The notes beneath the pieces are model-generated. The model was not told the DNA's origin. It saw only the letters and a list, made by a program, of their open reading frames with translations, and did not search any database. A DNA stretch of 31,000 nt, from assembly GCA_038240855.1 (NCBI GenBank), contig JBBRGI010000001.1:1-31000 (forward strand), written 5' to 3'. The first letter of the stretch is position 1; the number at the start of each line of letters is the position of its first letter. A program made the position numbers and the translations under genes. This DNA is from Bacteroidales bacterium (lineage in GTDB: Bacteria > Bacteroidota > Bacteroidia > Bacteroidales > Prolixibacteraceae). This document shows positions 1 to 26,949 of the stretch, in pieces.

Positions 1-2430
1 TTCAGTCAATCACCCCAATCCGACCTGAAATTGTGGTACACCAAACCTGCCAATCTTTGGGTCGAAGCCCTGCCATTAGGTAACGGACGTTTGGGCGCCA
101 TGGTTTTCGGCAATCCCTGGCGTGAGCGCATTCAGCTCAACGAAAATACCGTTTGGGCCGGAAGCCCATACCGGAACGATAATCCGGAAGCTTTGAACTC
201 ATTATCGGAAATCCGACAACTGATATTCGATGGTAAATATGATGAAGCCGAAAAGCTGGCCTGCAAAAAAATCACTTCACAGGGCGCTCACGGAATGCCC
301 TATCAAACCGTTGGAAATGTTTTTCTTTCGTTTCCAGGTCACGAAATGTTCAGCGATTATTACCGGGAACTGAATCTTCGAAATGCGGTGGCCACCACCA
401 CCTATCAGGTAGCCGGAACCACCTTTAAACGCGAAGTTTTTACTTCGTTTACCGATCAGGTGACGATCATTCGGATTACTGCCGACAAACCCGGGAAAAT
501 CAACTTCTCGGCTTCGATGGATCGGCCTGCCAAAGTGAATATTGCAACCGAAGGCAACGATAAATTAATCATGTCGGGCATTACCAGCGACCACGAGGGA
601 ATCAAAGGTGCCGTTAAATTTCAGACCATTGTGAAGATTGTACCCGAAGGTGGCAGCATTTCGTCCAGCGATCTGGCACTTAATGTCAGTAAGGCAAATA
701 GCGCTACCGTTTATATTTCGGTGGCTACCAACTTCAGAAATTATCAGGATATTTCAGGAAATCAGGCTCAAAAGGCAGAAGATATTCTGACTTCGGCGCT
801 TACAAAAGCTTATCCAACAGCTTTAGGCGATCATGTTGCAGCTTTTCAAAAAATGTTCAACCGGGTGGAACTCGATCTGGGAACTACCGATTCGATCCGC
901 AAACCCACCGATGTGCGTGTGAAAGAATTTGCCAAAGCCAACGACCCGCAAATGGCCGCTTTGTATTTTCAGTTTGGCCGTTACCTGCTAATCTGTTCCT
1001 CGCAGCCGGGTGGCCAGCCAGCTAACCTTCAGGGCATCTGGACTGATCAGCTTTTCCCGGCCTGGGACAGCAAATACACCGTGAGCATCAACACCGAAAT
1101 GAATTACTGGCCATCGGAAATTACCAACCTCACCGAAACCAATGAGCCACTGGTGCAGATGCTGAAAGACCTTTCGGTAACCGGACAGCAAACCGCAAAA
1201 ACCATGTACAATGCCAACGGCTGGGTACTTCACCACAACACCGATTTATGGCGTTTCAACGGTGCCATCGACGGTGCTCCGGGGCTTTGGCCAACAGGCG
1301 CAGCGTGGCTTTGTCAGCACCTTTGGGAAAAATATAAATTTAATGGCGATGTTGAATATTTAAAGTCGGTGTATCCCGTAATGAAAGGTGCTGCACAGTT
1401 CTTTCAGGATTTTTTAACCGAAGAACCGGTACACAAATGGCTGGTAGTCAGTCCTTCCATTTCTCCTGAAAACGCACCTTACAGCATTCGTCAGAAATGG
1501 GTTTGCATTACCGCCGGAACCACGATGGATAATTTACTGGTGTACGATTTGTTCACCAAAACCATTAAAGCTGCGGAGATTTTAAAAACCGATAAAGAGT
1601 TGGTGAAATCGCTTCAGGGTTTGACTAAACGCCTGCCTCCGATGCAGATCGGGCAATACAGCCAGTTGCAGGAATGGATGGAAGATTGGGACAATCCGAA
1701 AGACCAGCACCGCCACGTTTCGCATTTGTACGGTGTGTATCCCGGAAACCTGATTTCGCCTTACCGCACACCCGAACTTTTTGACGCCGCCCGCACTTCG
1801 CTCATATACCGTGGCGATGCTTCAACCGGCTGGTCGATGGGCTGGAAAATCAACCTCTGGGCTCGTTTTCAGGATGGAAACCATACCTATAAATTGCTGA
1901 CTGACCAGATTCATTTGATTGAACCTACCGATCAGAACCGGGGATGGAACAATGAAAACGGCGGTACTTATCCTAACCTGTTCGATGCTTGTCCGCCTTT
2001 TCAGATTGACGGGAATTTTGGCTGCACTGCCGGTATTGCCGAAATGTTGCTTCAAAGTTACGATGGTGCAATCTTTCCCCTACCCGCTTTGCCCGAGGTA
2101 TGGAAAAACGGAAGCATCAGCGGATTAAGAGCTGCCGGTGGCTTTGAGGTTGCTATGGAATGGAAAAATAATGAGTTGACCAAACTGGTGATCAAATCGG
2201 CCCTGGGAGGAAACTGCCGTTTGCGACTGGCTGGCGATCTGAATTCAACTTCAGGAGTTAATGTAAAACCGTCCAAAGGCGAAAACCTGAATCCGTTTTA
2301 TGCTACTCCGGTCGTAGCAAAACCCATTATTTCGGGAAAAGCAAAGCTGAATAAGCTGACCTTGAAACCAACCCAACTGGTTGAATTTGCTACCAAACCG
2401 GGTGGCGTGTATGAATTTGTAAAAAAGTAA
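1..2430 (+). CDS. GH95 alpha-L-fucosidase/alpha-L-galactosidase-like enzyme, 5'-truncated by window edge
   Basis: Frame 1 is open from base 1 ([13 protein letters not shown]...), so the TTG at 31 is not the real start. GH95 motifs: [60 protein letters not shown]. Confidence 0.93.
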
Positions 2431-16146: not shown

Positions 16147-16238
16147 TCGCTTCAGGTCTTCAACAGCACACTTCAATTCCAATATAGGACACTTCACTCG
16201 TTTTTTTTCGCAATGAAGGTTGATAGTCTATATTTTTG
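16147..16238 (+). promoter_or_regulatory. Putative LytTR operator (TCGCTTCAG 16147, ACACTTCAA 16168, ACACTTCAC 16189; 21-bp period) plus -7 element TATTTTTG at 16231
   Basis: 9-bp direct repeats separated by 12 bp, the known LytTR site geometry; Bacteroidetes TAnnTTTG starts 34 nt after the last repeat ends. Confidence 0.75.
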
Positions 16239-16272
16239 ATCGTATATTCACTTTTTAAATTTAATACCAATC

Positions 16273-17193
16273 ATGAAAAAAAACAGTTCAAAGATTTTAG
16301 GTGTTTTTTTGGCTATGTGCCTTTTCATCCTCACAATTAGCGGACAAGCCTTCGATTCCGGATCAGGATCATCAACGCGTACCTGCTCCAATGTTGCCTA
16401 CGCCAGCCTTTCGCCAGCCCAGGTGATGGATATTTATCTGCCCGAAGGCGATGGCCCGTTTCCTGTAGTGGTTTTAATTCATGGTGGCGCTTTTAAAATG
16501 GGCGATAAAGAAATGGAATCCCGCAATGCCGAAGCCTTGGTTGCCAAAGGATACGCAGCCGCGAGTATCAATTATCGGTTAAGCGGCGAAGCTAAATTTC
16601 CGGCACAGATTGAGGATTGCAAGGCTGTCGTCAGGTTTTTACGGGCCAATGCCGCCAAATATCGCCTGAATCCCGACAAGATTGGTTCGTGGGGTGCATC
16701 GGCTGGTGGCAACCTTTCGGCTTTGCTCGGAACCTCTTCCGGAGTGGCCGAATTGGAAGGAAAAGAGTTGGGCAATTCCGGAGTCTCTTCCAAGGTAATC
16801 GCTTCGGTTGACTGGTTTGGCCCCATTAATTTTCTGACCATGGACGACGAGGCTAAGGCGCTTGGTTTCACCGGACGGACTAACAGCGAATCTTCACCCG
16901 AATCGCAACTGATAGGCAAGGCAATTCAGTCGGTTCCCGAATTGGTTAAGAAAGCCAATCCTACCACTTACATTACTGCTGATGATGCGGCTTTTTTCAT
17001 TCAGGTGGGAAGTATGGATCGCAACATTCCGTATTCACAAAGCCGGAATTTCTACGATGCTATAAAACCAGTGATTGGTGCTGGTAAAGTGTCGTTTGAG
17101 TTACTGGAAGGAGCAGGCCACGGAGGACCGCAATTTTCAGCTCCATCGAATATTGAAAAGGTAATTGCCTTTTTTGATAAGTATCTAAAATAG
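16273..17193 (+). CDS. Secreted alpha/beta-hydrolase esterase (Abhydrolase_3/BD-FAE-like), copy 1
   Basis: HGGAF oxyanion motif, GASAGG nucleophile elbow, GSMD (Asp), GHGG (His); signal peptide. Confidence 0.88.
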   Translation: MKKNSSKILGVFLAMCLFILTISGQAFDSGSGSSTRTCSNVAYASLSPAQVMDIYLPEGDGPFPVVVLIHGGAFKMGDKEMESRNAEALVAKGYAAASINYRLSGEAKFPAQIEDCKAVVRFLRANAAKYRLNPDKIGSWGASAGGNLSALLGTSSGVAELEGKELGNSGVSSKVIASVDWFGPINFLTMDDEAKALGFTGRTNSESSPESQLIGKAIQSVPELVKKANPTTYITADDAAFFIQVGSMDRNIPYSQSRNFYDAIKPVIGAGKVSFELLEGAGHGGPQFSAPSNIEKVIAFFDKYLK

Positions 17194-17215
17194 ATAAATT
17201 AAAGAAAATGAATTC

Positions 17216-17260
17216 AGGCCTGGTTGTTTTTCCTACGAACAATCAGGCCTTTTTTCTTTT
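17216..17260 (+). terminator. Rho-independent terminator after esterase copy 1
   Basis: Stem AGGCCTGGTTGTT (17216-17228) / AACAATCAGGCCT (17238-17250), followed by TTTTTCTTTT. Confidence 0.85.
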
Positions 17261-17346
17261 CAATTCTTTTCAATTACACTTCAACCGCGAATAATTACGC
17301 TTCACGCAAATTTTTCTAAAAACCGTCAAAACCAGGGCTAGTTTTG
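17255..17346 (+). promoter_or_regulatory. Second putative LytTR operator (ACACTTCAA 17276, ACGCTTCAC 17297, weak TCTTTTCAA 17255) plus -7 element TAGTTTTG at 17339
   Basis: Same repeat, same 12-bp spacer and same 34-nt offset to TAnnTTTG as upstream of copy 1. Confidence 0.75.
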
Positions 17347-17376
17347 GGCATTGTTTAATTTTAAAACTCAGGAAAA

Positions 17377-18505
17377 ATGAAAAAGTTAATAGTAAGTTTA
17401 TTATAAACTTTAAAACCACCTCCTTTGGTGGTGGTTATGTATAAGCGGCTATGCCTGAAAATTAATTATTTTGTGGCATGAGCAATTTCAAAAATTAAGT
17501 CTTGTCAGTTATCAGAAAAAAAATGAACTAAGCAATAGAATCTGGACTTTGGCCCCTTATAGGGGCTTTTCAAGTCCACCTTCTCAGATGGTGGATTCTT
17601 TAATTGTTGCGACTAGTCTTTTATTCGGATCATGCAAGAAGAGTGATGTCGCTGTTGATGATACAACTGCCAGTACATCAACCAGTGCAACCACATTTAC
17701 AGATGTAGCCTATGCTACAACATCGTCGGCACAAAAGATGGATATCTATTTGCCTACGGGTGCCGGTCCATTCCCGGTGGTGGTAATTATTCATGGTGGC
17801 GCCTTTATGATGGGCGATAAAGGCGGAGAAACCTCAAATGCAGCAGCATTAGTGGCCAATGGAATTGCTGCCGTCAGCATTAACTACCGTTTAAGTGGTG
17901 AAGCTCCTTTTCCTGCGCAAATACAGGATTGTAAAGCCGCGGTCAGATTCCTGCGTGCCAATGCAACTAAATACAACCTGAATCCTGATAAAATTGGTTC
18001 GTGGGGTGCTTCGGCCGGTGGAAATCTTTCAGCCATGCTGGGCACTTCTTCAGGAATTACCGAACTGGAAGGAGCCAGCCTCGGAAATTCGAGCTTTTCT
18101 TCAAAAGTTATCGCATCTGTCGATTGGTTCGGTCCGATTAACTTTCTGACCATGGATGCCGAAGCCGCTGCATTGGGATTTACGATTTCAACAAACAGTT
18201 CTTCTTCTCCTGAATCAAAACTGATGGGAGCAGCCGTTCAAACAATACCTGCCCAGGTTGCCAAGGCTAACCCGTCCACTTACATTACGACTGACGATGC
18301 AGCGTTTTTTATTCAGGTGGGTAGCCTCGACCGGAATATTCCCTATACCCAGAGCCTGAATTTTTACAACGCGTTGAAAACGGTGAAAGGTTCGACGGAT
18401 GTAAGTTATGAATTGCTTGATGGCGCTGCACATGGAGGTACTCAGTTCTCTACCGCTACAAACATGGCCAAAGTGATAGCATTCTATACGAAATACCTGA
18501 AATAG
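17377..18505 (+). pseudogene. Lipoprotein alpha/beta-hydrolase esterase, copy 2, interrupted in its signal peptide
   Basis: ATG 17377 gives MKKLIVSLL-stop. Removing the ~200-bp insert fuses it in frame to IVATSLLFGS-CKKSD (lipobox Cys). Catalytic domain (HGGAF, GASAGG, GSLD, AHGG) is intact to the stop at 18505. Confidence 0.75.
17401..17602 (-). mobile_element. Non-autonomous miniature element resembling IS200/IS605 ends
   Basis: Sub-terminal hairpins AACCACC..GGTGGTT (17414-17436) and TCCACC..GGTGGA (17575-17595), nested TGGACTT-GCCCC-TTATA-GGGGC-AAGTCCA (17543-17578); no transposase; no terminal inverted repeats; splits a coding sequence. Boundaries uncertain by about 3 nt; strand is a guess from IS200 end layout. 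Confidence 0.6.
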
Positions 18506-18559
18506 TATTCCGCGCTGGCGTTTTTTATGCCAATTGATTTTTATTTTTGTAAAAAATTT

Positions 18560-18593
18560 AACCTGAATGTTCCGCAAAAAGAACATTCAGGTT
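18560..18593. other. Perfect 13-bp inverted repeat between esterase 2 and the sensor kinase
   Basis: AACCTGAATGTTC-cgcaaaaa-GAACATTCAGGTT; a TATTTTTG (TAnnTTTG) lies just upstream at 18542-18549. No long U-tract. Confidence 0.7.
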
Positions 18594-18635
18594 TACCACA
18601 TAGCTAGATCTGGTTAACTAAAATTATTCCTTAAA

Positions 18636-19646
18636 ATGAGCTCAAAAATCGGCCTGATTGATGCCAAATATTTACTCGCCGTATCCTTTACCGGAGCCTT
18701 GTTGTTATCGTTGATGCCCTTAAGTTTTGCACTCGACTCATTCATGATGCCTGATTTCTATTTGCGGTTTTTGGATGTTGTTTTGCTCTTTCTGATGGTG
18801 GCATTCATGTTTTACGCCGGCATATCATTCAACCTGAAATGGAGTCATTTCTCAACGGTGAAAAAGCTAATATTTAACCTGATTCTTTATCTGGTGGGTA
18901 CATTGGCTTGCATCGCCGTTCATTTGCCGATATGGAAAATAACATCGCACATTCCGTTGCCTTTTTACATCAAAGATGAAATTGTCAGAAATATGATCAT
19001 TCTGCTGGTTAGTTTCATGTCGGTCAGGTTTTATGTAAAAACCACTGAAAATAAGCAGTTAAAAGAAGACTATACCGATCTGCAAACCCAGCACCTGAAC
19101 AGCCAGCTTACAGCTTTGATGAACCAGATTAACCCTCACTTTTTCTTCAATACGCTAAATACCTTAAGTGGACTGATTCATGAGAATCCGGAAAAGAGCG
19201 AGGTTTTTATCAACAAACTTTCGCAGGTATTCCGATATATTCTGAATATGCAGGAAAACAGCCACGTACTACTTTCTGAAGAAATTAAATTTGCCCGCGA
19301 TTATGCGTTTTTGCTGAATGTACGTTTCGAGGATAAACTACAGATAAATTTTGGAAGTGTCGATCAGATCAATGCCCGGGTTCCATCGCTTTGCAGCCAG
19401 TTGCTCATCGAAAATGTAATCAAGCACAACCGGATGAACCAACAGTTTCCGTTAACCGTATCTTTTTCAGAAGAAAACGGTTACCTCAAAATCTGCAACA
19501 ATTTCATCCCTCAGTTAAGCGAAAATTCTACCGGTTTGGGTCTTAAAAACTTGAACCGCAGGAGCGAACTGCTGTCGGGAAAACCCATTGTGATTGAAAA
19601 GACAGAGGATTCGTTTTGTGTGAAAGTTCCGTTTATAAAAATTTGA
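18636..19646 (+). CDS. LytS/YehU-type membrane sensor histidine kinase
   Basis: Several N-terminal hydrophobic segments; H-box QINPHFFFNTLN; LLIENVIKHN; STGLGLKN. Confidence 0.9.
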   Translation: MSSKIGLIDAKYLLAVSFTGALLLSLMPLSFALDSFMMPDFYLRFLDVVLLFLMVAFMFYAGISFNLKWSHFSTVKKLIFNLILYLVGTLACIAVHLPIWKITSHIPLPFYIKDEIVRNMIILLVSFMSVRFYVKTTENKQLKEDYTDLQTQHLNSQLTALMNQINPHFFFNTLNTLSGLIHENPEKSEVFINKLSQVFRYILNMQENSHVLLSEEIKFARDYAFLLNVRFEDKLQINFGSVDQINARVPSLCSQLLIENVIKHNRMNQQFPLTVSFSEENGYLKICNNFIPQLSENSTGLGLKNLNRRSELLSGKPIVIEKTEDSFCVKVPFIKI

Positions 19647-19648
19647 TT

Positions 19649-20413
19649 ATGAATGTAGTATTGATTGAAGACGAAGGTATTGCCCTTCGAAAGTTAAAAA
19701 AAATAATTCTTGAAATTGCTACTGAAACGGTTTTCGTGGCCGAACTCGAATCGGTTTTTGATGCCCGAAATTGGTTTATGCAAAATCGCAATGCTGCTAT
19801 TGATTTGATATTTTCAGACATTCAGTTGTCTGACGGCCTGTCGTTCGAGATTTTTGAATCGCTGAATACCCAATTTCCTATCATTTTCACCACAGCTTAT
19901 AACGAATATGCACTCAGGGCATTCAAACTCAATGGGGTTGATTATTTGCTAAAACCCATCCAAAAGGACGAACTGCAACAAGCATTGAGCAAGTTCGAAA
20001 AAACCAGAACCAGCTATTCGAATGACCAGCTTTTCCAATTGCAGCAATTGATGCTGCAGTTTAAACAACCTGTTAAGAGCAGTCCAACATTCATTCCCTA
20101 CGTCAAAGACCAGATGATCCCATTTCAGTCTGAGTCGGTGGCCTATTTTTATACCAGCAACCAGCTCGTGTATGCTGTTACGGAGCAGCGCGAATTTGTG
20201 CTCACCGAAACCCTCGAAGAGGTTGAAAATCGGTTGCCTACCGCCCTGTTTTTCCGCGCCAACCGCCAATTTATCATCCAGAAACGATTTGTGGCCAATG
20301 CCGAGCTCTATTTCAACAACCGGCTAATCGTTCACCTGAAACAAAAAACTCCCGAAAAGATTGTGATCAGCCGAGAAAAGGCCGGTGCATTCAAAGAATG
20401 GCTGGTTGGGTAA
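19649..20413 (+). CDS. LytTR-family response regulator
   Basis: Start MNVVLIEDE at 19649 (track gives 19616); receiver DLIFSDIQL, IIFTTAY, DYLLKP; LytTR FFRANRQFII and VISREKA. Confidence 0.92.
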   Translation: MNVVLIEDEGIALRKLKKIILEIATETVFVAELESVFDARNWFMQNRNAAIDLIFSDIQLSDGLSFEIFESLNTQFPIIFTTAYNEYALRAFKLNGVDYLLKPIQKDELQQALSKFEKTRTSYSNDQLFQLQQLMLQFKQPVKSSPTFIPYVKDQMIPFQSESVAYFYTSNQLVYAVTEQREFVLTETLEEVENRLPTALFFRANRQFIIQKRFVANAELYFNNRLIVHLKQKTPEKIVISREKAGAFKEWLVG

Positions 20414-20452: not shown

Positions 20453-20776
20453 TTAATCCAGATGAAAAACCTCGTCCATATTGGCCCACCATTCACCTTC
20501 AGCACGATTTTCAACAGGTCGTTGCATCGGCATCATGATTTTCCACCATTCCTGTGTTTTAGCATCAGCAGCCATTTTGGCCATATCAGCAGCGAAATCA
20601 TCGCCGGCATATTCCATATAGGCAAACAGCATTCCGTCTTTGTGAAAAATAGAATAATTCCTGATGTTGCAGGCGGTAATCATCTCCAAAATTTCAGGCC
20701 AAACGGATGAATGATATTCCTTGTAACGCTCAAAGTTCTGCGGGTCAACCCCGATAATTTGCCCAAATCGTTTCAT
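20453..20776 (-). CDS. rhaM: L-rhamnose/L-fucose mutarotase (RhaM/YiiL family)
   Basis: YKEYHSSVWPEI, IRNYSIF, LFAYMEY, TQEWW, EVFHLD motifs; 107 aa. Confidence 0.85.
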   Translation of the reverse strand: MKRFGQIIGVDPQNFERYKEYHSSVWPEILEMITACNIRNYSIFHKDGMLFAYMEYAGDDFAADMAKMAADAKTQEWWKIMMPMQRPVENRAEGEWWANMDEVFHLD

Positions 20777-20781
20777 GTGAG

Positions 20782-20835
20782 TAGATTTTTAGTCATTAAG
20801 TTGTCATTTATAGTCAGTTATTGTCATTAGATTTT
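20782..20835. repeat. Short GTCA-core tandem repeats flanked by TAGATTTT direct repeats
   Basis: GTCA at 20792, 20803, 20813, 20823; TAGATTTT at 20782-20789 and 20828-20835. Confidence 0.55.
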
Positions 20836-20842
20836 AATTTCC

Positions 20843-22519
20843 TTAGAGCAGTACAATTTCATAAATACCGGGAGCCTGGCTGTATTCTTTCAGAACCAGT
20901 CTCACCTTTTGAGCAGTTGTTTTGGGTAGCTTTATCTCCAGCTTGCTGCCGATAGTGGTACCTTTGTATATTGTTTTCCATTGATCCCCGGTCAGAGCCT
21001 GAATTTCGAATGCCTTTACTGACTGGCCTCTTTCATAAAGAATTGCTTTGGATATTTTTTCAGGTTTACCTAGATCAATCTCAACCCAGGGGTTTAAACC
21101 CTTTTCTTCGGGTTCCCAATATGCGCCTGACCAATCGCCATTGGTTACAGAACTCAATTCAACCCATTGATGGTTGATCCATTGACCCTTAGGATTTGAA
21201 GATGCTGTCAAGGATTTCATATAAGAAAGTGAATTAGAACTGATTTCTAATGGCTCAACATTCATCACACTGCCTGAACATTCAAGTTCGACAATAGTAT
21301 TAACCGGCTGCAATTCCTCTGCTGAGAGTTCGATGGCATAACCTTTAGCCAACTTGGTCAACTTCACTTTTCCGCCGTGGGCAAGTTTGCAACTTTTAAT
21401 TTCCAATCCCAAATCGGGAATTGTAATTATTGGAGTAGTTCCAGTCCACTTCAAGATATGCAGATAAATGAAATTTCCTTTGCGGGTACTCACGCCCCAG
21501 TCGGCAGGTTTAAACGGACCACCGCGGGTTTCATAAATAGTATATCCATATTTCTGAAGCCACTGTCCCATTTCTTTCAATCGGGAAATTTGTTCAGGTT
21601 CAATACTTCCATCCGATTTTGGCCCCACATTAAACAACAAGTTTCCATCGCCACCGGCTGAACGTACTAACGATTGCAAACACTGCTCCAGCGATTTCAC
21701 CTTGTCATTGGGTTTCCAGGCCCACTGGCTGGCAATGGTCATGCAGGTTTCCCACGGACGGTCGATCTGGAATCCGCCAACCCGCTGCTCCGGTGTATCA
21801 AAATCACCTTTGGCACCGGTCCTGTTGTTGATGATAATATCTGGCTGAATCTGATGTGCGAAATCAATCACACTTTGACCGCGAACTGCATCAAATTTCT
21901 GCGGAACATCGAACCAAAGCACGTAAAGCGGTCCGTAATTCAGCAAAAGTTCTGCCACCTGCTTTTTCAAATAGGTGGTGTATGCATCTAAATTACTTTT
22001 TTCACGTGCAACACTGCCACCTGGACTGGTAAGCGGAAAATCGGGATTATACCAGTCACAGGTTGAATAATAGGTGCCAAAAGCCATACCTTGTTTACGG
22101 CAAGCTTCGGCCAGTTCCTTCACCACATCGCGTTTCAAAGGCGAATTCATGATGTTGTGATCGGTTTGACGCGTATTCCACAAACAAAATCCATCATGGT
22201 GTTTGGTCGTCAGAACAATGTATTTCATACCGGCAACTCTGGCTACATTCACCCAATCATCGGCATTGAAATTTTTCGCGTCGAATTGTTTGTAAAGGTT
22301 GTCGTATTCCTCCACCGGAATTTCGCGACCGCGCGACCATCCAATTTCAGTTCCTTTCAATGAGACAGGTCCCCAGTGGATAAACATCCCGAAACGGGCA
22401 TCTTTCCACTTTTCAATTTTCTGTTCGTTGCCGATTTGTTTTTGGGGGACTGATTGTGCCATTGACCCTTTCAGTAGAAAGGAAATCAGCAAAAGAATTA
22501 AAATTAGTTTTGTTTTCAT
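20843..22519 (-). CDS. GH29 alpha-L-fucosidase with C-terminal F5/8 (CBM32-like) domain
   Basis: WKDARFGMFIHWGP, KHHDGFCLW, VLWFD (nucleophile), DFDTPEQ, PWETCMT, LLFNVGP; C-terminal PWVEIDLGK. Confidence 0.92.
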   Translation of the reverse strand: MKTKLILILLLISFLLKGSMAQSVPQKQIGNEQKIEKWKDARFGMFIHWGPVSLKGTEIGWSRGREIPVEEYDNLYKQFDAKNFNADDWVNVARVAGMKYIVLTTKHHDGFCLWNTRQTDHNIMNSPLKRDVVKELAEACRKQGMAFGTYYSTCDWYNPDFPLTSPGGSVAREKSNLDAYTTYLKKQVAELLLNYGPLYVLWFDVPQKFDAVRGQSVIDFAHQIQPDIIINNRTGAKGDFDTPEQRVGGFQIDRPWETCMTIASQWAWKPNDKVKSLEQCLQSLVRSAGGDGNLLFNVGPKSDGSIEPEQISRLKEMGQWLQKYGYTIYETRGGPFKPADWGVSTRKGNFIYLHILKWTGTTPIITIPDLGLEIKSCKLAHGGKVKLTKLAKGYAIELSAEELQPVNTIVELECSGSVMNVEPLEISSNSLSYMKSLTASSNPKGQWINHQWVELSSVTNGDWSGAYWEPEEKGLNPWVEIDLGKPEKISKAILYERGQSVKAFEIQALTGDQWKTIYKGTTIGSKLEIKLPKTTAQKVRLVLKEYSQAPGIYEIVLL

Positions 22520-22553
22520 ATCTGGTCATATTTTAAGGTTTAGTTGAATCATT

Positions 22554-24284
22554 TTAATTGGGATAGAGCTGGAATTCCTTGATTCCGGAGAAACCCTCCC
22601 GATCAAGAATTACCAACCTGAATTTCTGCGCGGTAACGGGAGCAATATTTTGTTTCCAGTCGCCCATTTTCGTTCCGGCAGCAATTGTTAACCATTTACC
22701 ATCTTTTTCATACTGAATTTCAAAACCTTTAATTTCTGAATTTACAAAAACGAGTTCGCTTACCGCAATGCTTTTTACGGTCTGGGGTTTGCCCAAATCA
22801 GCTTCCAGCCAACCTTGTTTCTCGAAGAAAGCTTTCACTTCTTCGCTCCTGTAATTGAGTAGCTTACCAAATTGTGAGTCAAAATCGATATCAGTTCTGC
22901 GTCCGGGTTTCCAATGGGTTTTCGGGTTATCATCGAATGCCGCAGACGGATCGTGAAGAAACTGTCCAACGGAACTGGAAGCACTTGCTTTGCAATTGTA
23001 AGCTAATGAACCGGAGGTTGAAAATGGATAAATCAAAGCCAGTTCGTTCAATGACTTGTTGGTTATTAAAGTAATTAAGCTGGAGATGTTTTCGCGATCA
23101 GCTTGTGGAATAATCAGTTTTAGTATCTTTTTATCCTGAATAAATCGAACATCTTTCCCATTGATCAGGTTGGCTTTTTTAATTTTTGCAGGCAGTGCCG
23201 GCAATGTCAGCGTGTCGCCTTTCATGGCCAGAATATTCAGGTACATGGTGTTCCCGTTGTAAGTGCACAGATAGTCGTTGGTTGGGGTGTACGGTCCGCC
23301 ATTGGTGTTGTAAACCGATTGTCCATGTATTTTCAGCCAATCGCCCAATTCCATTAACCGTGCCTGGAAGTCTGCCGGAATCTGCCCCAGACTATCGGGA
23401 CCTACATTCAGCAACAGATTGCCATTTCCACCCGCGCAGCGCAGTAAGGTGGTGGCAGCTTCGCTGATCGGACGCGGAGTATCTTTTGGTCGCCACGCCC
23501 ATTGATGCCCCAGATTGGTGCAGGTTTCCCAGGGAATGGCACCATATCCGGCCACAAAACCTTCAGGTGTAGCATAATCGCCGTAAGGCCCAACAAAAGC
23601 GTGCGATTCGTCGGTATGAAAAACATCCAGCCGATTATTTACGATGATTCCGGGCTGCAGCTTCTTGGCCAGTTCGTATATTTCCTTGGGTTTTACAGGG
23701 CTTGGCGAACCTTCGTAGTCGATCCAAAGCAAGCTGATTTTTCCATAATTAGTTAGCAATTCACGAACCTGCTCCAATACACGTTTGGCAAACACATCGT
23801 TGGTTTTTGGGTTCCGGCAATCAGGATCTTTCCAGTCGGCAGGCGAGAAGTACCAGCAAATGGGCATATCGGCTTTGTGTGCAGCATCGGCCAGTTCTTT
23901 GCAAACATCACGTCCAAAAGGGGTTTTCATGATGTTGTAACTGGTGGTTTTGGTATTCCATTCACAAAAACCATCGTGGTGTTTGGCTGTGAAAACCATG
24001 TATTTCATTCCGGCTTTTTGCGCCAGTGCGACCCATTCGTCAGGATTAAATTTTACCGGATTGAATCCTTTGTATAATGAATCGTATCTGGCTTTGCCAT
24101 ATCCTTCGCGCGACCAGCTGATTTCGCCGCCAAAGCGGGTAACCGGTCCCCAGTGGATAAACATCCCAAAGCGGGCTTCCTGCCACCATTTCAAATCGGT
24201 AGCAGTGGATTTTTGTCCCTGCCCAAATCCTTCCACAAACAAAAAGACGATCAATAAACTAATAAGTGAAATTTTCAACTTCAT
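22554..24284 (-). CDS. GH29 alpha-L-fucosidase with C-terminal F5/8 domain (tandem paralog)
   Basis: WWQEARFGMFIHWGP, KHHDGFCEW, LLWID, DYATPEG, PWETCTN, LLLNVGP; WLEADLGK. Confidence 0.92.
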   Translation of the reverse strand: MKLKISLISLLIVFLFVEGFGQGQKSTATDLKWWQEARFGMFIHWGPVTRFGGEISWSREGYGKARYDSLYKGFNPVKFNPDEWVALAQKAGMKYMVFTAKHHDGFCEWNTKTTSYNIMKTPFGRDVCKELADAAHKADMPICWYFSPADWKDPDCRNPKTNDVFAKRVLEQVRELLTNYGKISLLWIDYEGSPSPVKPKEIYELAKKLQPGIIVNNRLDVFHTDESHAFVGPYGDYATPEGFVAGYGAIPWETCTNLGHQWAWRPKDTPRPISEAATTLLRCAGGNGNLLLNVGPDSLGQIPADFQARLMELGDWLKIHGQSVYNTNGGPYTPTNDYLCTYNGNTMYLNILAMKGDTLTLPALPAKIKKANLINGKDVRFIQDKKILKLIIPQADRENISSLITLITNKSLNELALIYPFSTSGSLAYNCKASASSSVGQFLHDPSAAFDDNPKTHWKPGRRTDIDFDSQFGKLLNYRSEEVKAFFEKQGWLEADLGKPQTVKSIAVSELVFVNSEIKGFEIQYEKDGKWLTIAAGTKMGDWKQNIAPVTAQKFRLVILDREGFSGIKEFQLYPN

Positions 24285-24289
24285 TGGAC

Positions 24290-25546
24290 TTAGCTTTTTA
24301 GGTTATTAAACTCTCTCACGGCCTCAAACATGGCCACAATATTTTGCGGTGGAACATCAGGTAATATGTTGTGAACGGTATTAAACACAAAGCCACCGCC
24401 TTTCGAGAAAATTTCGAGCCGTTCGAAAACCTGGTCGCGGATTTGCTGCGGGGTTCCGATGTTCAGTGTTCCCACCGTTTCGATTCCACCACCCCAGAAC
24501 GTACAATCCTGTCCGAATTCCTTCTTCAAAAAATCGGGAGCCATATTCCAGGAGTTAGTCTGAACAGGATTAAAGATCTCAATACCGGCCTCAATCATGT
24601 CGGGCATCAGCAATGAAATGGATCCGCACGAATGAATATAAGTGTGCATTTTACTATGCGATTTTACATAGTCGCACAGGATTTTATGGCGAGGTTTGAA
24701 TAGTGTTTTGTAGGTATCCACATCCATAAACGGGCCTGAACTCATGCCCAGATCGTCGCCAAAACGGATAATATCGACAATGTCGCCAACGGCATTACAC
24801 ACCTTTTCGAGCGTGGCCAGATGGCGAATCAAAAGTTGATCGAGCAGTTTTTCAACATTGTCCGGATCGCACATCAAATCCATCAGGAAATTGTCCATCC
24901 GGCGCAGGAAAGTTCCCCATTCAAACAGGTTGCAGCCGCAAACCACCAGCAATGCTTTATCTGTACTGGCACGAAGTTTCAAAGTATTTTCACGCAGTTT
25001 CTGCCAAAAGTTAGATTCACTGGCATGATCCCACGGACTATGCACATCGCGTGCCCACATGATGCGACCCATTTCAGCATCCAGGTTTTCGTAGGAATCG
25101 GGATAGCCGTCAACGTAAGGGAAATAAGTCTGATCGAAGAAGGTTGCTCCAATCGGCATCCTCGACAACATGCGTTTACCATCGTCGTCGTAGGTTTGAT
25201 ACGAACCATCTGGCATTTGTGTTGGCTGAAATGATTTGGGATAGAAAGCAGCGCCACCATTGGCCATTGTTATAGGACTCCAGTCAGAAGACTGATCGTT
25301 AAACGTCCGCCCGATATCGAGTACATCCACGCCAAACTGATCCAGAATAGCAATATCGGGTTGGGCGAGTTGCTGAACCACGTCATAGATCCACACAGGC
25401 AATTCGCTTCTATTTATATGTTTAAGCAAATTACTGTATGCAATAGCCGAAATTCCCGAACTTGGGGTGGCGCTTAAATCAATTGGAACCCGGTCCGGTT
25501 CCTTATGGCTAATTGCCGCTAAAATTCGTTCTCTTGAAGTTGTCAT
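24290..25546 (-). CDS. URO-D/MtaA-CmuA superfamily protein (not a canonical HemE)
   Basis: SRERILAAISHKEPDRVPIDL N-terminus, GDDLG, HSCG (HxC metal motif), FNPVQ, TFWGG, GGFVFNTVHNI; lacks HemE RQAGR; no signal peptide. Confidence 0.8.
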   Translation of the reverse strand: MTTSRERILAAISHKEPDRVPIDLSATPSSGISAIAYSNLLKHINRSELPVWIYDVVQQLAQPDIAILDQFGVDVLDIGRTFNDQSSDWSPITMANGGAAFYPKSFQPTQMPDGSYQTYDDDGKRMLSRMPIGATFFDQTYFPYVDGYPDSYENLDAEMGRIMWARDVHSPWDHASESNFWQKLRENTLKLRASTDKALLVVCGCNLFEWGTFLRRMDNFLMDLMCDPDNVEKLLDQLLIRHLATLEKVCNAVGDIVDIIRFGDDLGMSSGPFMDVDTYKTLFKPRHKILCDYVKSHSKMHTYIHSCGSISLLMPDMIEAGIEIFNPVQTNSWNMAPDFLKKEFGQDCTFWGGGIETVGTLNIGTPQQIRDQVFERLEIFSKGGGFVFNTVHNILPDVPPQNIVAMFEAVREFNNLKS

Positions 25547-25553
25547 ATCTTTT

Positions 25554-25648
25554 GTTTAAAGTTTAAGGTTGAATGTCTAAAGTTGTTCCAAGTTTCAAGT
25601 TCAAAATTCCAAGTTAACCTGGAACTTGAAATCTGAAACTTGAAACTT
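25554..25648. repeat. Heptamer-repeat array forming an imperfect palindrome
   Basis: TTCCAAG TTTCAAG TTCAAAA TTCCAAG TT|AA CCTGGAA CTTGAAA TCTGAAA CTTGAAA (25586-25645), centred on GTTAAC 25613-25618; degenerate heptamers continue to 25554. Confidence 0.75.
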
Positions 25649-25651
25649 TTT

Positions 25652-26686
25652 TTATCCGCTTATGCCAATTAAAAACGATGCTGTAATCAGCACCGCCAAT
25701 CCTAACCAAACTAATCCTTTGATTTTAAATTCAATCCCTTTCCACTCACCGCGGAAAAATCCCCAAATGGTGGCACAAACAATGGTCAGCGACATCAGGA
25801 TTCCCCAAGCTACAAAAGTAAATTCGCCCATTTTGCTGGTTCCCATCCCGTAAAAAATATAGTTGATAAACCACAAAAAGCTAGCAAAAGCGCATAGGGT
25901 GTAATTGGTGATCAATGTTTTCGAATCACCTTTGTAATAATCGCCCAACGAATTATTTTTGATGCCGAGGTAGATACACCAAATCAAGGTCGAAAGCAAC
26001 GACCCTGCGAAAAAGAGAACAAACACAGGGCATTTGGCAAACAATTCGGGAGTGCCTGCTTTAACGGTTTCTTCGGCAATCATTTTGCCCTGTTCAAAAC
26101 CAAGCGACATGGACGAACCGGTGACGCCCACAAACAGTGCAGCAAAAAGTCCTTTGCGCAAATCGAAATCCGCATTGGCTTTTACTCCTTTCAATGTTTC
26201 GAGCTTGCGGCTTTTTAAAATACCGGCATAAGCGGTAATCCCGATGCCAATACACGAAATAATAATACCGGAAATGAGCAGGATGCCGCCGTTTCCTTCA
26301 AACATCTTGCTCATTCGTCCATCGATCATGGGTGGCAGAAGGGTTCCGATTACCATCATCAATCCCAGCGAAATACAGAAGCCCAGAGCAACACCTAAGT
26401 ATCGCAACGACAATCCGAATGTCAGGTTTGCCAAACCATAAACTGCGCCCAGAATAAAAATAAGCCACAAGTTCCCCGATGGAATTGTCTTGTATATTTC
26501 CATAAAATTGGGAGCAACAATCAGGCAAATAATCAATGGGACAAAGAGATAGGCAAAAACACTAAAAGTTAACCACGAATTTTCCCATTTCCATTTGGTT
26601 ACTTTATCAAACGGGATACTGAAGCTACCCGAGGAAAAAGCGCCAAGGGCAATAATCAAAATACCAAGCAAAACACTTGCGCTCAT
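25652..26686 (-). CDS. rhaT: RhaT-family L-rhamnose/H+ symporter-like transporter (DMT superfamily)
   Basis: About 10 hydrophobic helices; SFSIPFDKVTKWKWENSW, GLSLRYLGVALG, GTLLPP, FYGMG, WGFFRGEWKG. Actual substrate not established. Confidence 0.85.
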   Translation of the reverse strand: MSASVLLGILIIALGAFSSGSFSIPFDKVTKWKWENSWLTFSVFAYLFVPLIICLIVAPNFMEIYKTIPSGNLWLIFILGAVYGLANLTFGLSLRYLGVALGFCISLGLMMVIGTLLPPMIDGRMSKMFEGNGGILLISGIIISCIGIGITAYAGILKSRKLETLKGVKANADFDLRKGLFAALFVGVTGSSMSLGFEQGKMIAEETVKAGTPELFAKCPVFVLFFAGSLLSTLIWCIYLGIKNNSLGDYYKGDSKTLITNYTLCAFASFLWFINYIFYGMGTSKMGEFTFVAWGILMSLTIVCATIWGFFRGEWKGIEFKIKGLVWLGLAVLITASFLIGISG

Positions 26687-26762
26687 AAGTTTACTGGTTT
26701 AGATGATAGGTTTTTTTTTGTCATATTTTTGTACTCCGGTAAAATTGATTAGAATACTCTTA

Positions 26763-26770
26763 CAAACTTA
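26763..26770 (-). promoter_or_regulatory. Candidate -7 promoter element (TAAGTTTG) for the rhaT operon
   Basis: Matches TAnnTTTG, 77 nt upstream of the rhaT ATG; TATTTG direct repeats further upstream (about 26808-26825). Confidence 0.45.
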
Positions 26771-26949
26771 CCTAATCGGAATAACTATATCTTGAACATT
26801 TCAGGCAAATAAGTGCACAAATACGACATATATCGATCCTATTATTTCTCAACTTTGAAAGCAACAAAATTAATCAACTCATTGCCAGACAACCAAAAGA
26901 AGTAGAATGACAAAATCAATGAAACACCATCATTGAAACTGGATTCATC

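Follow-up and report, generated by a model that had tools for sequence, protein, structure and literature searches.

The DNA analysed here (the window) comprises the first 31,000 nucleotides of contig JBBRGI010000001.1, from a sediment Bacteroidota bacterium of the family Prolixibacteraceae (assembly GCA_038240855.1; 3.4 Mb, 81% complete). On its forward strand, two tandem esterase genes are followed by genes for a histidine kinase and a response regulator with a LytTR domain, and each esterase promoter carries short phased direct repeats at a constant distance from its -7 box (Table 1). Here we describe these repeats as a probable LytTR operator, trace them through related loci, and compare them with LytTR systems already characterised.

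Table 1. Features of the window, and matching sites in other genomes and contigs
Source	Position	Strand	Feature	Sequence or remark
Window	16147..16155	+	Distal weaker unit, promoter 1	TCGCTTCAG; predicted -96 to -88
Window	16168..16176	+	Middle unit, promoter 1	ACACTTCAA; predicted -75 to -67
Window	16189..16197	+	Promoter-proximal unit, promoter 1	ACACTTCAC; predicted -54 to -46
Window	16201..16209	+	T-rich stretch at the place of the -33 element, promoter 1	TTTTTTTTC; anchored alignment, information content
Window	16231..16238	+	-7 box, promoter 1	TATTTTTG; predicted transcription start near 16243
Window	16273..17193	+	Esterase 1, BD-FAE family, 306 amino acids	Pfam PF20434, E 1.3e-63
Window	17216..17250	+	Intrinsic terminator hairpin and T-run between the esterase genes	Equivalent hairpin at the same place in ortholog L034
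Window	17255..17263	+	Distal weaker unit, promoter 2	TCTTTTCAA
Window	17276..17284	+	Middle unit, promoter 2	ACACTTCAA
Window	17297..17305	+	Promoter-proximal unit, promoter 2	ACGCTTCAC
Window	17311..17316	+	TTTTTC at the place of the -33 element, promoter 2	
Window	17339..17346	+	-7 box, promoter 2	TAGTTTTG; predicted transcription start near 17351
Window	17588..18505 (alternative start 17471)	+	Esterase 2, BD-FAE family	Likely start ATG 17588 (MVDSLIVATSLLFGSC)
Window	18636..19646	+	Histidine kinase, 336 amino acids	PF06580 His_kinase; 4 predicted membrane helices, no large outside domain
Window	19649..20413	+	Response regulator, REC (Asp57) and LytTR (FFRANRQ)	Pfam, alignment, model and fold matches
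L034, first site			Unit pair	ACGTTTCAA-N12-ACGCTTCAA; downstream a 603-amino-acid BD-FAE-like protein with type-IX secretion tail, then a BD-FAE esterase
L034, second site			Unit pair	ACACTTCAA-N12-ACGCTTCAC; downstream the last esterase
L053			Unit pair	ACGCTTCAG-N12-ACACTTCAC
L052			Unit pair	ATGTTTCAA-N12-ACACTTCGC
G019			Units	TTGTTTCAA, ATGATTCAA, TCGATTCAA; downstream an esterase-kinase-regulator operon
G147			Units	CAGTTTCAA, ACGTTTCAA, ACGTCTCAA; downstream an esterase-kinase-regulator operon
G010			Units	AGGATTCAA, TTGCTTCAC; downstream an esterase-kinase-regulator operon
Kapaibacterium, L055	1367-6589		Locus with three TTCAC units	38 nt before a TATTTTAC box; near-duplicate copy L035
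G000	C143:7243-7309	minus	TTCACCG...N...CATTCACCGA	
G010	C27:18059-18125		TTCACCG...N...CATTCACCGA	
G506	C7:67850		TTCACCG...N...CATTCACCGA	
G431	C17:9908		TTCACCG...N...CATTCACCGA	
G397	C12:673721		TTCACCG...N...CATTCACCGA	
G490	C47:5667		TTCACCG...N...CATTCACCGA	
G491	C45 and C48		TTCACCG...N...CATTCACCGA	

Phased repeats at the two esterase promoters

Each esterase promoter holds three 9-bp units of consensus AC[A/G][C/T]TTCA[A/C], repeated at a 21-bp period along a single helix face; the pair nearer the promoter is strong, the distal unit weaker. LytTR sites consist of two repeats of 9-11 nt placed 11-13 nt apart (PMC4847170). Measured against a definition of at least two direct repeats of that length and spacing, the esterase promoters offer 9-mers, 12-nt spacers and three phased copies. 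The initial annotation had described the pairs ACACTTCAA-N12-ACACTTCAC and ACACTTCAA-N12-ACGCTTCAC, a weaker third unit 21 bp upstream of each and an identical 34-nt offset to the -7 box, and all of these, with every coordinate it gave, proved correct. The third units are TCGCTTCAG at 16147 and TCTTTTCAA at 17255, and the offset counts from the end of the proximal repeat. Scored with the repeat matrix, the distal units fall within the top 0.04% (promoter 1) and the top 0.45% (promoter 2) of genomic 9-mers.

Both -7 boxes agree with TAnnTTTG, the -7 consensus of the Bacteroidota housekeeping sigma factor (PMC7366714, PMC9723704). In flavobacteria this box spans -12 to -5 (PMC9723704), and the positions given for the units in Table 1 are therefore predicted from it; the strong pair is centred at a predicted -60.5. 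The -33 element TTTG is absent, and a conserved TTC/TTTC stands in its place, +12 to +15 from the proximal TTCA (predicted -38 to -35). A -33 element is not general in Bacteroidota (PMC7366714), and the TTC/TTTC found instead of TTTG fits an activator-dependent promoter. An Rfam scan of the region returned just two sub-threshold chance matches and thus gives no sign of an RNA element. Immediately downstream of the -7 box lies a block, G..CAT(T)GTTTAATTTTA[A/G]AA (window 17346-17368; L034 5921-5943; L033 6134-6156), that spans the predicted start and early leader and is conserved in several genera at their esterase promoters.

Identity between the two promoters is 35% once the repeats and the -7 box are set aside, compared with 94% for the strong repeats, which bears out the earlier remark that their spacers are unrelated. 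Base by base, the strong repeats agree at 17 of 18 positions, the -7 boxes at 7 of 8 and the distal units at 6 of 9. The esterases themselves, of the BD-FAE family (named for bifunctional feruloyl/acetyl-xylan esterase; PMC8165983), have Pfam E values of about 1e-61 to 1e-63 and are tandem paralogs with 76% amino-acid identity; their third codon positions are also 35% identical. As read from the sequences, the duplication is old. With neutral positions at 35% and the repeats at 94%, selection on the repeats, and not descent from the duplication, accounts for their likeness.

The second esterase has an altered beginning. Its ancestral start, ATG 17377 (MKKLIVSLL), runs into a stop at 17404, after which comes an insert of ~200 bp with sub-terminal hairpins, and a lipoprotein-type signal resumes at ATG 17588. 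The signal peptide of the esterase ortholog in L034 is uninterrupted, and no second copy of the insert was found in the genome. Given the insert, the second promoter would produce a leader of ~237 nt.

A chance origin of the repeat pairs is excluded: shuffling the window gave an expectation of 0.01 matches, and three were found. A genome-wide scan for the motif with its spacing, a check envisaged in the initial annotation, recovered only the two window sites at one mismatch or fewer, with none in a reversed control, and pairs of the 8-mer core occur in the genome solely at a 21-nt period. When a matrix was built from the units of other genomes alone, the window sites ranked first and second among 6.83 million positions, and the distal-middle pair of promoter 1 ranked fourth. 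The third-ranked match, at C186:2584, has no -7 box at the correct distance and was set aside. The other six LytTR loci of this genome lack any TTCA-type pair accompanied by a -7 box within 4.5 kb. Among the searches, the matrix scan and the exact matches were informative; the core pattern with one mismatch is too loose, giving 7-13 matches per genome, mostly intragenic.

The kinase-regulator pair and its orthologous loci

The regulator matches the receiver family PF00072 (50 bits; cut-off 30.2) and the LytTR family PF04397 (68.7 bits; cut-off 22.6). Asp57, within SDIQLSDG, is invariant across 10 homologs. The motif that defines LytTR domains, FhRhHRS or similar (PMC4227749), here has F201, F202, R203, A204 and R206 invariant and the canonical His and Ser replaced by Asn and Gln. 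An AlphaFold model, with a predicted local distance difference test score above 90 over residues 160-254, shows the all-beta LytTR fold. In Foldseek searches it matched full-length ComE (4cbv, E 2.6e-10), the LytTR structure 3d6w (template-modelling (TM) score 0.82, root-mean-square deviation 2.1) and AgrA (4g4k and 3bs1, TM about 0.75). Searched with phmmer against solved structures, the protein matched through its receiver domain alone, and the LytTR domain was confirmed through Pfam and the fold. The genome encodes 7-8 LytTR regulators.

The neighbouring genes had been taken for an adjacent LytS/LytTR pair, a description that holds for the regulator, with its REC and LytTR domains, and fails for a full LytS. 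The His_kinase domain (residues 157-235) is the sole Pfam domain found in the kinase, and neither 5TM-Lyt nor GAF, which precede His_kinase in LytS/BtsS sensors, was matched in this 4-helix protein; the kinase core alone is common to LytS. Nor is a peptide quorum-sensing cassette evident: the kinase is of the PF06580 type, and no peptide gene was seen in the locus, where small open reading frames were not searched exhaustively.

The gap between esterase 2 and the kinase gene (18516-18600) contains a weak terminator (18516-18532), a -7-like box with the same sequence as that of promoter 1, TATTTTTG (18542-18549), and a hairpin with a 14-bp stem (18560-18593). Hairpins also occur at the corresponding place in L034, L052 and L053; in the group of G019, G147 and G010 only 6 nt separate the two genes.

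The locus lies in a glycan-degradation cluster with GH95, GH29 and GH106 enzymes, SGNH esterases, a rhamnose mutarotase and RhaT. Beyond the regulator, a minus-strand operon (20453-29953) includes the rhamnose mutarotase, a fucosidase, RhaT and related genes, and a gene for an AraC-family regulator (30149-31000, cut by the window end) faces away from it. This AraC-family regulator probably controls the minus-strand operon.

Orthologs of the LytTR regulator, at 69-85% identity, were found in 5 of 332 other genomes searched in the family and in metagenome contigs; the closest named relative locus belongs to a Prolixibacteraceae metagenome-assembled genome in the same family group as the window genome. 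Conservation at orthologous loci, which the initial annotation had named as a check, was found: the same layout is present at every ortholog locus with readable upstream DNA, six Prolixibacteraceae loci in all. For G010, where the ortholog contig ends within the esterase gene, the matching promoter was located on a separate short contig, C440. A Kapaibacterium system whose regulator is 50% identical also has the units (ACAATTCAC, ACACTTCAC, CCGATTCAC). Instead of esterase genes, they precede genes for a DUF3500 protein, for a dioxygenase-like protein that carries a type-IX secretion tail and for a membrane protein of the HupE/UreJ type, followed by the kinase and regulator.

We aligned 10 promoters from 7 genomes or contigs on the proximal TTCA, with the near-duplicate L035 as an extra. 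In all ten, the distance between the first T of that TTCA and the TA of the -7 box is exactly 38 nt. Per column, the strong units carry 1.4 bits of information, the distal unit 1.0 and the -7 box 1.5, against 0.55 at other positions; the short TTC/TTTC is conserved as well, with 1.4 bits at +13 to +15. In nine of the ten promoters the distal unit falls within the top 2.5% of genomic 9-mers. Across these loci the kinase-regulator pair is constant and its targets vary, being BD-FAE esterases, large BD-FAE-like proteins or the DUF3500/dioxygenase/HupE genes. Since the target genes change while the pair stays, the leading candidate for a protein that binds the units is the adjacent regulator.

In G010 the region downstream of the regulator gene contains two copies of a palindrome-like element, TTTTCGGAAACGTTTCCGAAAA (L004 about 800-850, minus strand). 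Its half-copy, AACTTTCCGAAAATTG, stands directly upstream of the distal repeat in G019 and G010 (L033 6026-6045; L086). The element, which may be the site of another factor, is absent from the window.

Related layouts across the order

We scanned a sample of 201 genomes drawn across the order for TTCAC-N16-TTCAC followed by a -7 box within 23-43 nt. The 85 matches concentrate at a gap of 33 nt (20 matches), with 10 at 34 and 6 at 32; the remaining gaps have 0-5 matches each, except for 9 at gap 41, which are partly short tandem TTCAC-type repeats. With the gap fixed at 33 and the distance between cores left free from 6 to 26 nt, 20 of 38 matches had the cores 16 nt apart, with 3 each at 17 and 21. 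Seven sites with gaps of 32 or 33, in five genomes, were checked for their neighbours, and four lie at most 3.2 kb upstream of a LytTR gene on the same strand or directly adjoin one, for which chance would account at a rate of ~1% or less. The spacing peaks and the adjacency to LytTR genes together make this layout a common signature of LytTR-dependent promoters in the order.

Loose scans with exact patterns revealed similar arrays at paralogous systems. In G073 (L109, L111, L112, L113), three or four phased [T/A]CAGTTCAC units stand 33 nt before -7 boxes and precede the system's own kinase-regulator genes as well as genes for small secreted proteins of 108 amino acids (MKKLAIIFAIISLALNVAVA...), an arrangement reminiscent of peptide or bacteriocin-type regulons. 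In G022 a unit pair lies directly before a kinase-regulator pair. A second widespread operator type, TTCACCG...N...CATTCACCGA, has the same spacing to the -7 box (Table 1), and its sites in G506 and G431 adjoin LytTR genes; a version with one mismatch occurs once in the window genome, away from any LytTR gene found. A search of 55 paralogous LytTR loci for a self-similar 9-mer pair 42 nt before a -7 box gave no peak, a weak negative, many of these loci comprising only ~1.5 kb on each side of the regulator gene.

From these patterns one might draw a general grammar for LytTR activators in Bacteroidota, in which two to four TTCA[A/C]-cored 9-mers recur strictly every 21 bp and the TA of the -7 box follows the proximal core by exactly 38 nt (37-39), a generalization that we think could equally well hold or fail. 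The grammar would place the units in the same register to the start as in Firmicutes, despite a different housekeeping sigma factor and upstream element, and would imply a polymerase contact conserved across phyla. If true, it would also make the regulons of the many orphan LytTR systems of the phylum, with 7-28 per genome in those genomes that were counted, readable from sequence.

Proposed circuit, alternatives and known systems

Taken together, these observations make it likely that the repeats are the operator of the regulator encoded at 19649-20413, and probably an activator site that switches on both esterase genes, as the initial annotation had supposed. In such a circuit the membrane kinase would phosphorylate the regulator, which would then occupy the phased units next to one another along a single DNA face, over a span of about -96 to -46. 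So bound, it would bring in or position RNA polymerase where a good -7 box is combined with a T-rich TTTC instead of the -33 TTTG, and both BD-FAE esterase genes would be switched on. We infer activation rather than repression from geometry alone, and the predicted transcription starts from the positions of the -7 boxes. The cue is likely to be membrane-soluble, to act at the cytoplasmic face or to arrive through a partner protein, because the kinase has no sizeable outside domain. In G019, G147 and G010, where kinase and regulator genes follow the esterase gene at 6 nt, positive feedback is likely.

Several points weigh against this proposal. The terminator, the hairpin and the separate -7-like box before the kinase gene make self-regulation in the window uncertain. 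The ten promoters compared are related and represent ~4 lineages, so their counts overstate independence, and the ACRC half of the 9-mer is not conserved in the group of G019 and G010 (GATTCAA and similar). In a genome that is 81% complete there may be additional sites. Cross-recognition is possible, with 7-8 LytTR regulators in the genome and very similar TTCAC cores in paralogous systems elsewhere.

The last point leads to a reading that we consider unlikely, in which the repeats form a LytTR operator bound mainly by one or more different LytTR regulators, with the neighbouring pair as one input or none. Near-identical cores and spacing in paralogous systems, such as the G073 units, would leave specificity to few positions, and the other LytTR genes of the genome would provide candidates. 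The layout, however, occurs in this genome at this locus only, the six other LytTR loci being without it within 4.5 kb, and the site travels with the regulator orthologs through changing gene neighbourhoods. We regard it as quite improbable that the adjacent regulator binds here in order to repress or modulate promoters that are constitutive or driven by another activator. In favour of this reading, both -7 boxes are near consensus, yet the units lie upstream of the core promoter without overlapping the -7 or -33 region, and their invariant distance to the -7 box, in the 10 promoters and order-wide, is expected for polymerase contact and not for blocking. Where LytTR sites in this position have been characterised, they activate (PMC4227749, PMC6560143).

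Binding of the repeats by a protein from a different regulator family, for instance the AraC-type protein encoded at 30149-31000 and beyond, is very improbable, although its gene does stand at the window end. AraC/XylS activators typically use half-sites that are direct repeats phased at 21 bp. Against such a binder, 13 kb separate the AraC-type gene from the repeats and the operon that it faces is another one, the motif is found together with the kinase/LytTR pair in loci of varied content, the order-wide sites adjoin LytTR genes far above chance, and the motif resembles characterised LytTR boxes base for base (PMC6560143). It is hardly credible that the repeats are a functionless remnant of the tandem duplication; the esterases are indeed tandem paralogs, but their third codon positions and the remainder of the promoters have diverged far more than the repeats, and the elements are conserved in other genera and another class. 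We therefore retain the adjacent regulator, acting as an activator, as the probable explanation.

Elements of this kind are familiar from Firmicutes and Proteobacteria, LytTR regulators are numerous in Bacteroidota, and a literature search for LytTR operators found none described for Bacteroidetes. The locus supplies a conserved candidate binding motif, a fixed distance between activator and promoter, and a small regulon, made up of BD-FAE acetyl/feruloyl esterases, within a cluster for the degradation of fucose/rhamnose glycans. It could serve as a test system for LytTR activation of the unusual Bacteroidota promoter, and the search pattern derived from it already recovers LytTR-linked promoters across the order. 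It would also place carbohydrate esterases under a two-component system, apart from the schemes usual for polysaccharide loci, which rely on hybrid two-component systems, SusR and extracytoplasmic-function (ECF) sigma factors.

Among known systems, YpdA/YpdB and BtsS/BtsR of Escherichia coli likewise pair a PF06580 kinase with a REC-LytTR regulator and control a small local regulon, and the binding of YpdB to its direct repeat of GGCATTTCAT is cooperative (PMC4847170). In E. coli, pyruvate is sensed by large kinases with 5TM-Lyt/GAF domains (PMC10653868), whereas the window kinase, with 336 amino acids and 4 helices, lacks such domains; the regulated genes are transporters there and esterases here. 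AgrA of Staphylococcus aureus recognises a 9-bp direct repeat of ACAGTTAAG (PMC11039898), with the pair centred near -60 at promoters P2 and P3 that are suboptimal without AgrA (PMC4227749). The window shares the 9-bp direct repeat, by prediction the placement near -60, the LytTR fold and, judging from the missing -33 TTTG, a suboptimal core promoter that would need its activator. It differs in having a third phased unit, conserved in 9 of 10 promoters, in motif positions 4, 7 and 9, and in serving glycan breakdown instead of quorum sensing.

BlpR and ComE of Streptococcus pneumoniae differ from the window system in their biology. Their kinases sense secreted peptides and their targets are bacteriocin and competence operons, whereas here a PF06580 kinase without an evident peptide gene is linked to carbohydrate esterases; their promoters use a sigma-70 type factor with a -10 box in place of the Bacteroidota -7 TAnnTTTG, and protein identity is below 20%. 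The DNA layout is nevertheless very similar. BlpR boxes consist of ACAATTCAAG in 21-bp tandem, with N33 between a 19-21-nt block and the start; for ComE, N42 separates the right box, the 10-mer ACADTTGAGR, from the start (PMC6560143). The BlpR unit differs from ACACTTCAA at one base and has the same 21-bp period, the proximal unit starts at about -54 to -52 there and at a predicted -54 here, and full-length ComE is the best structural match of the regulator model.

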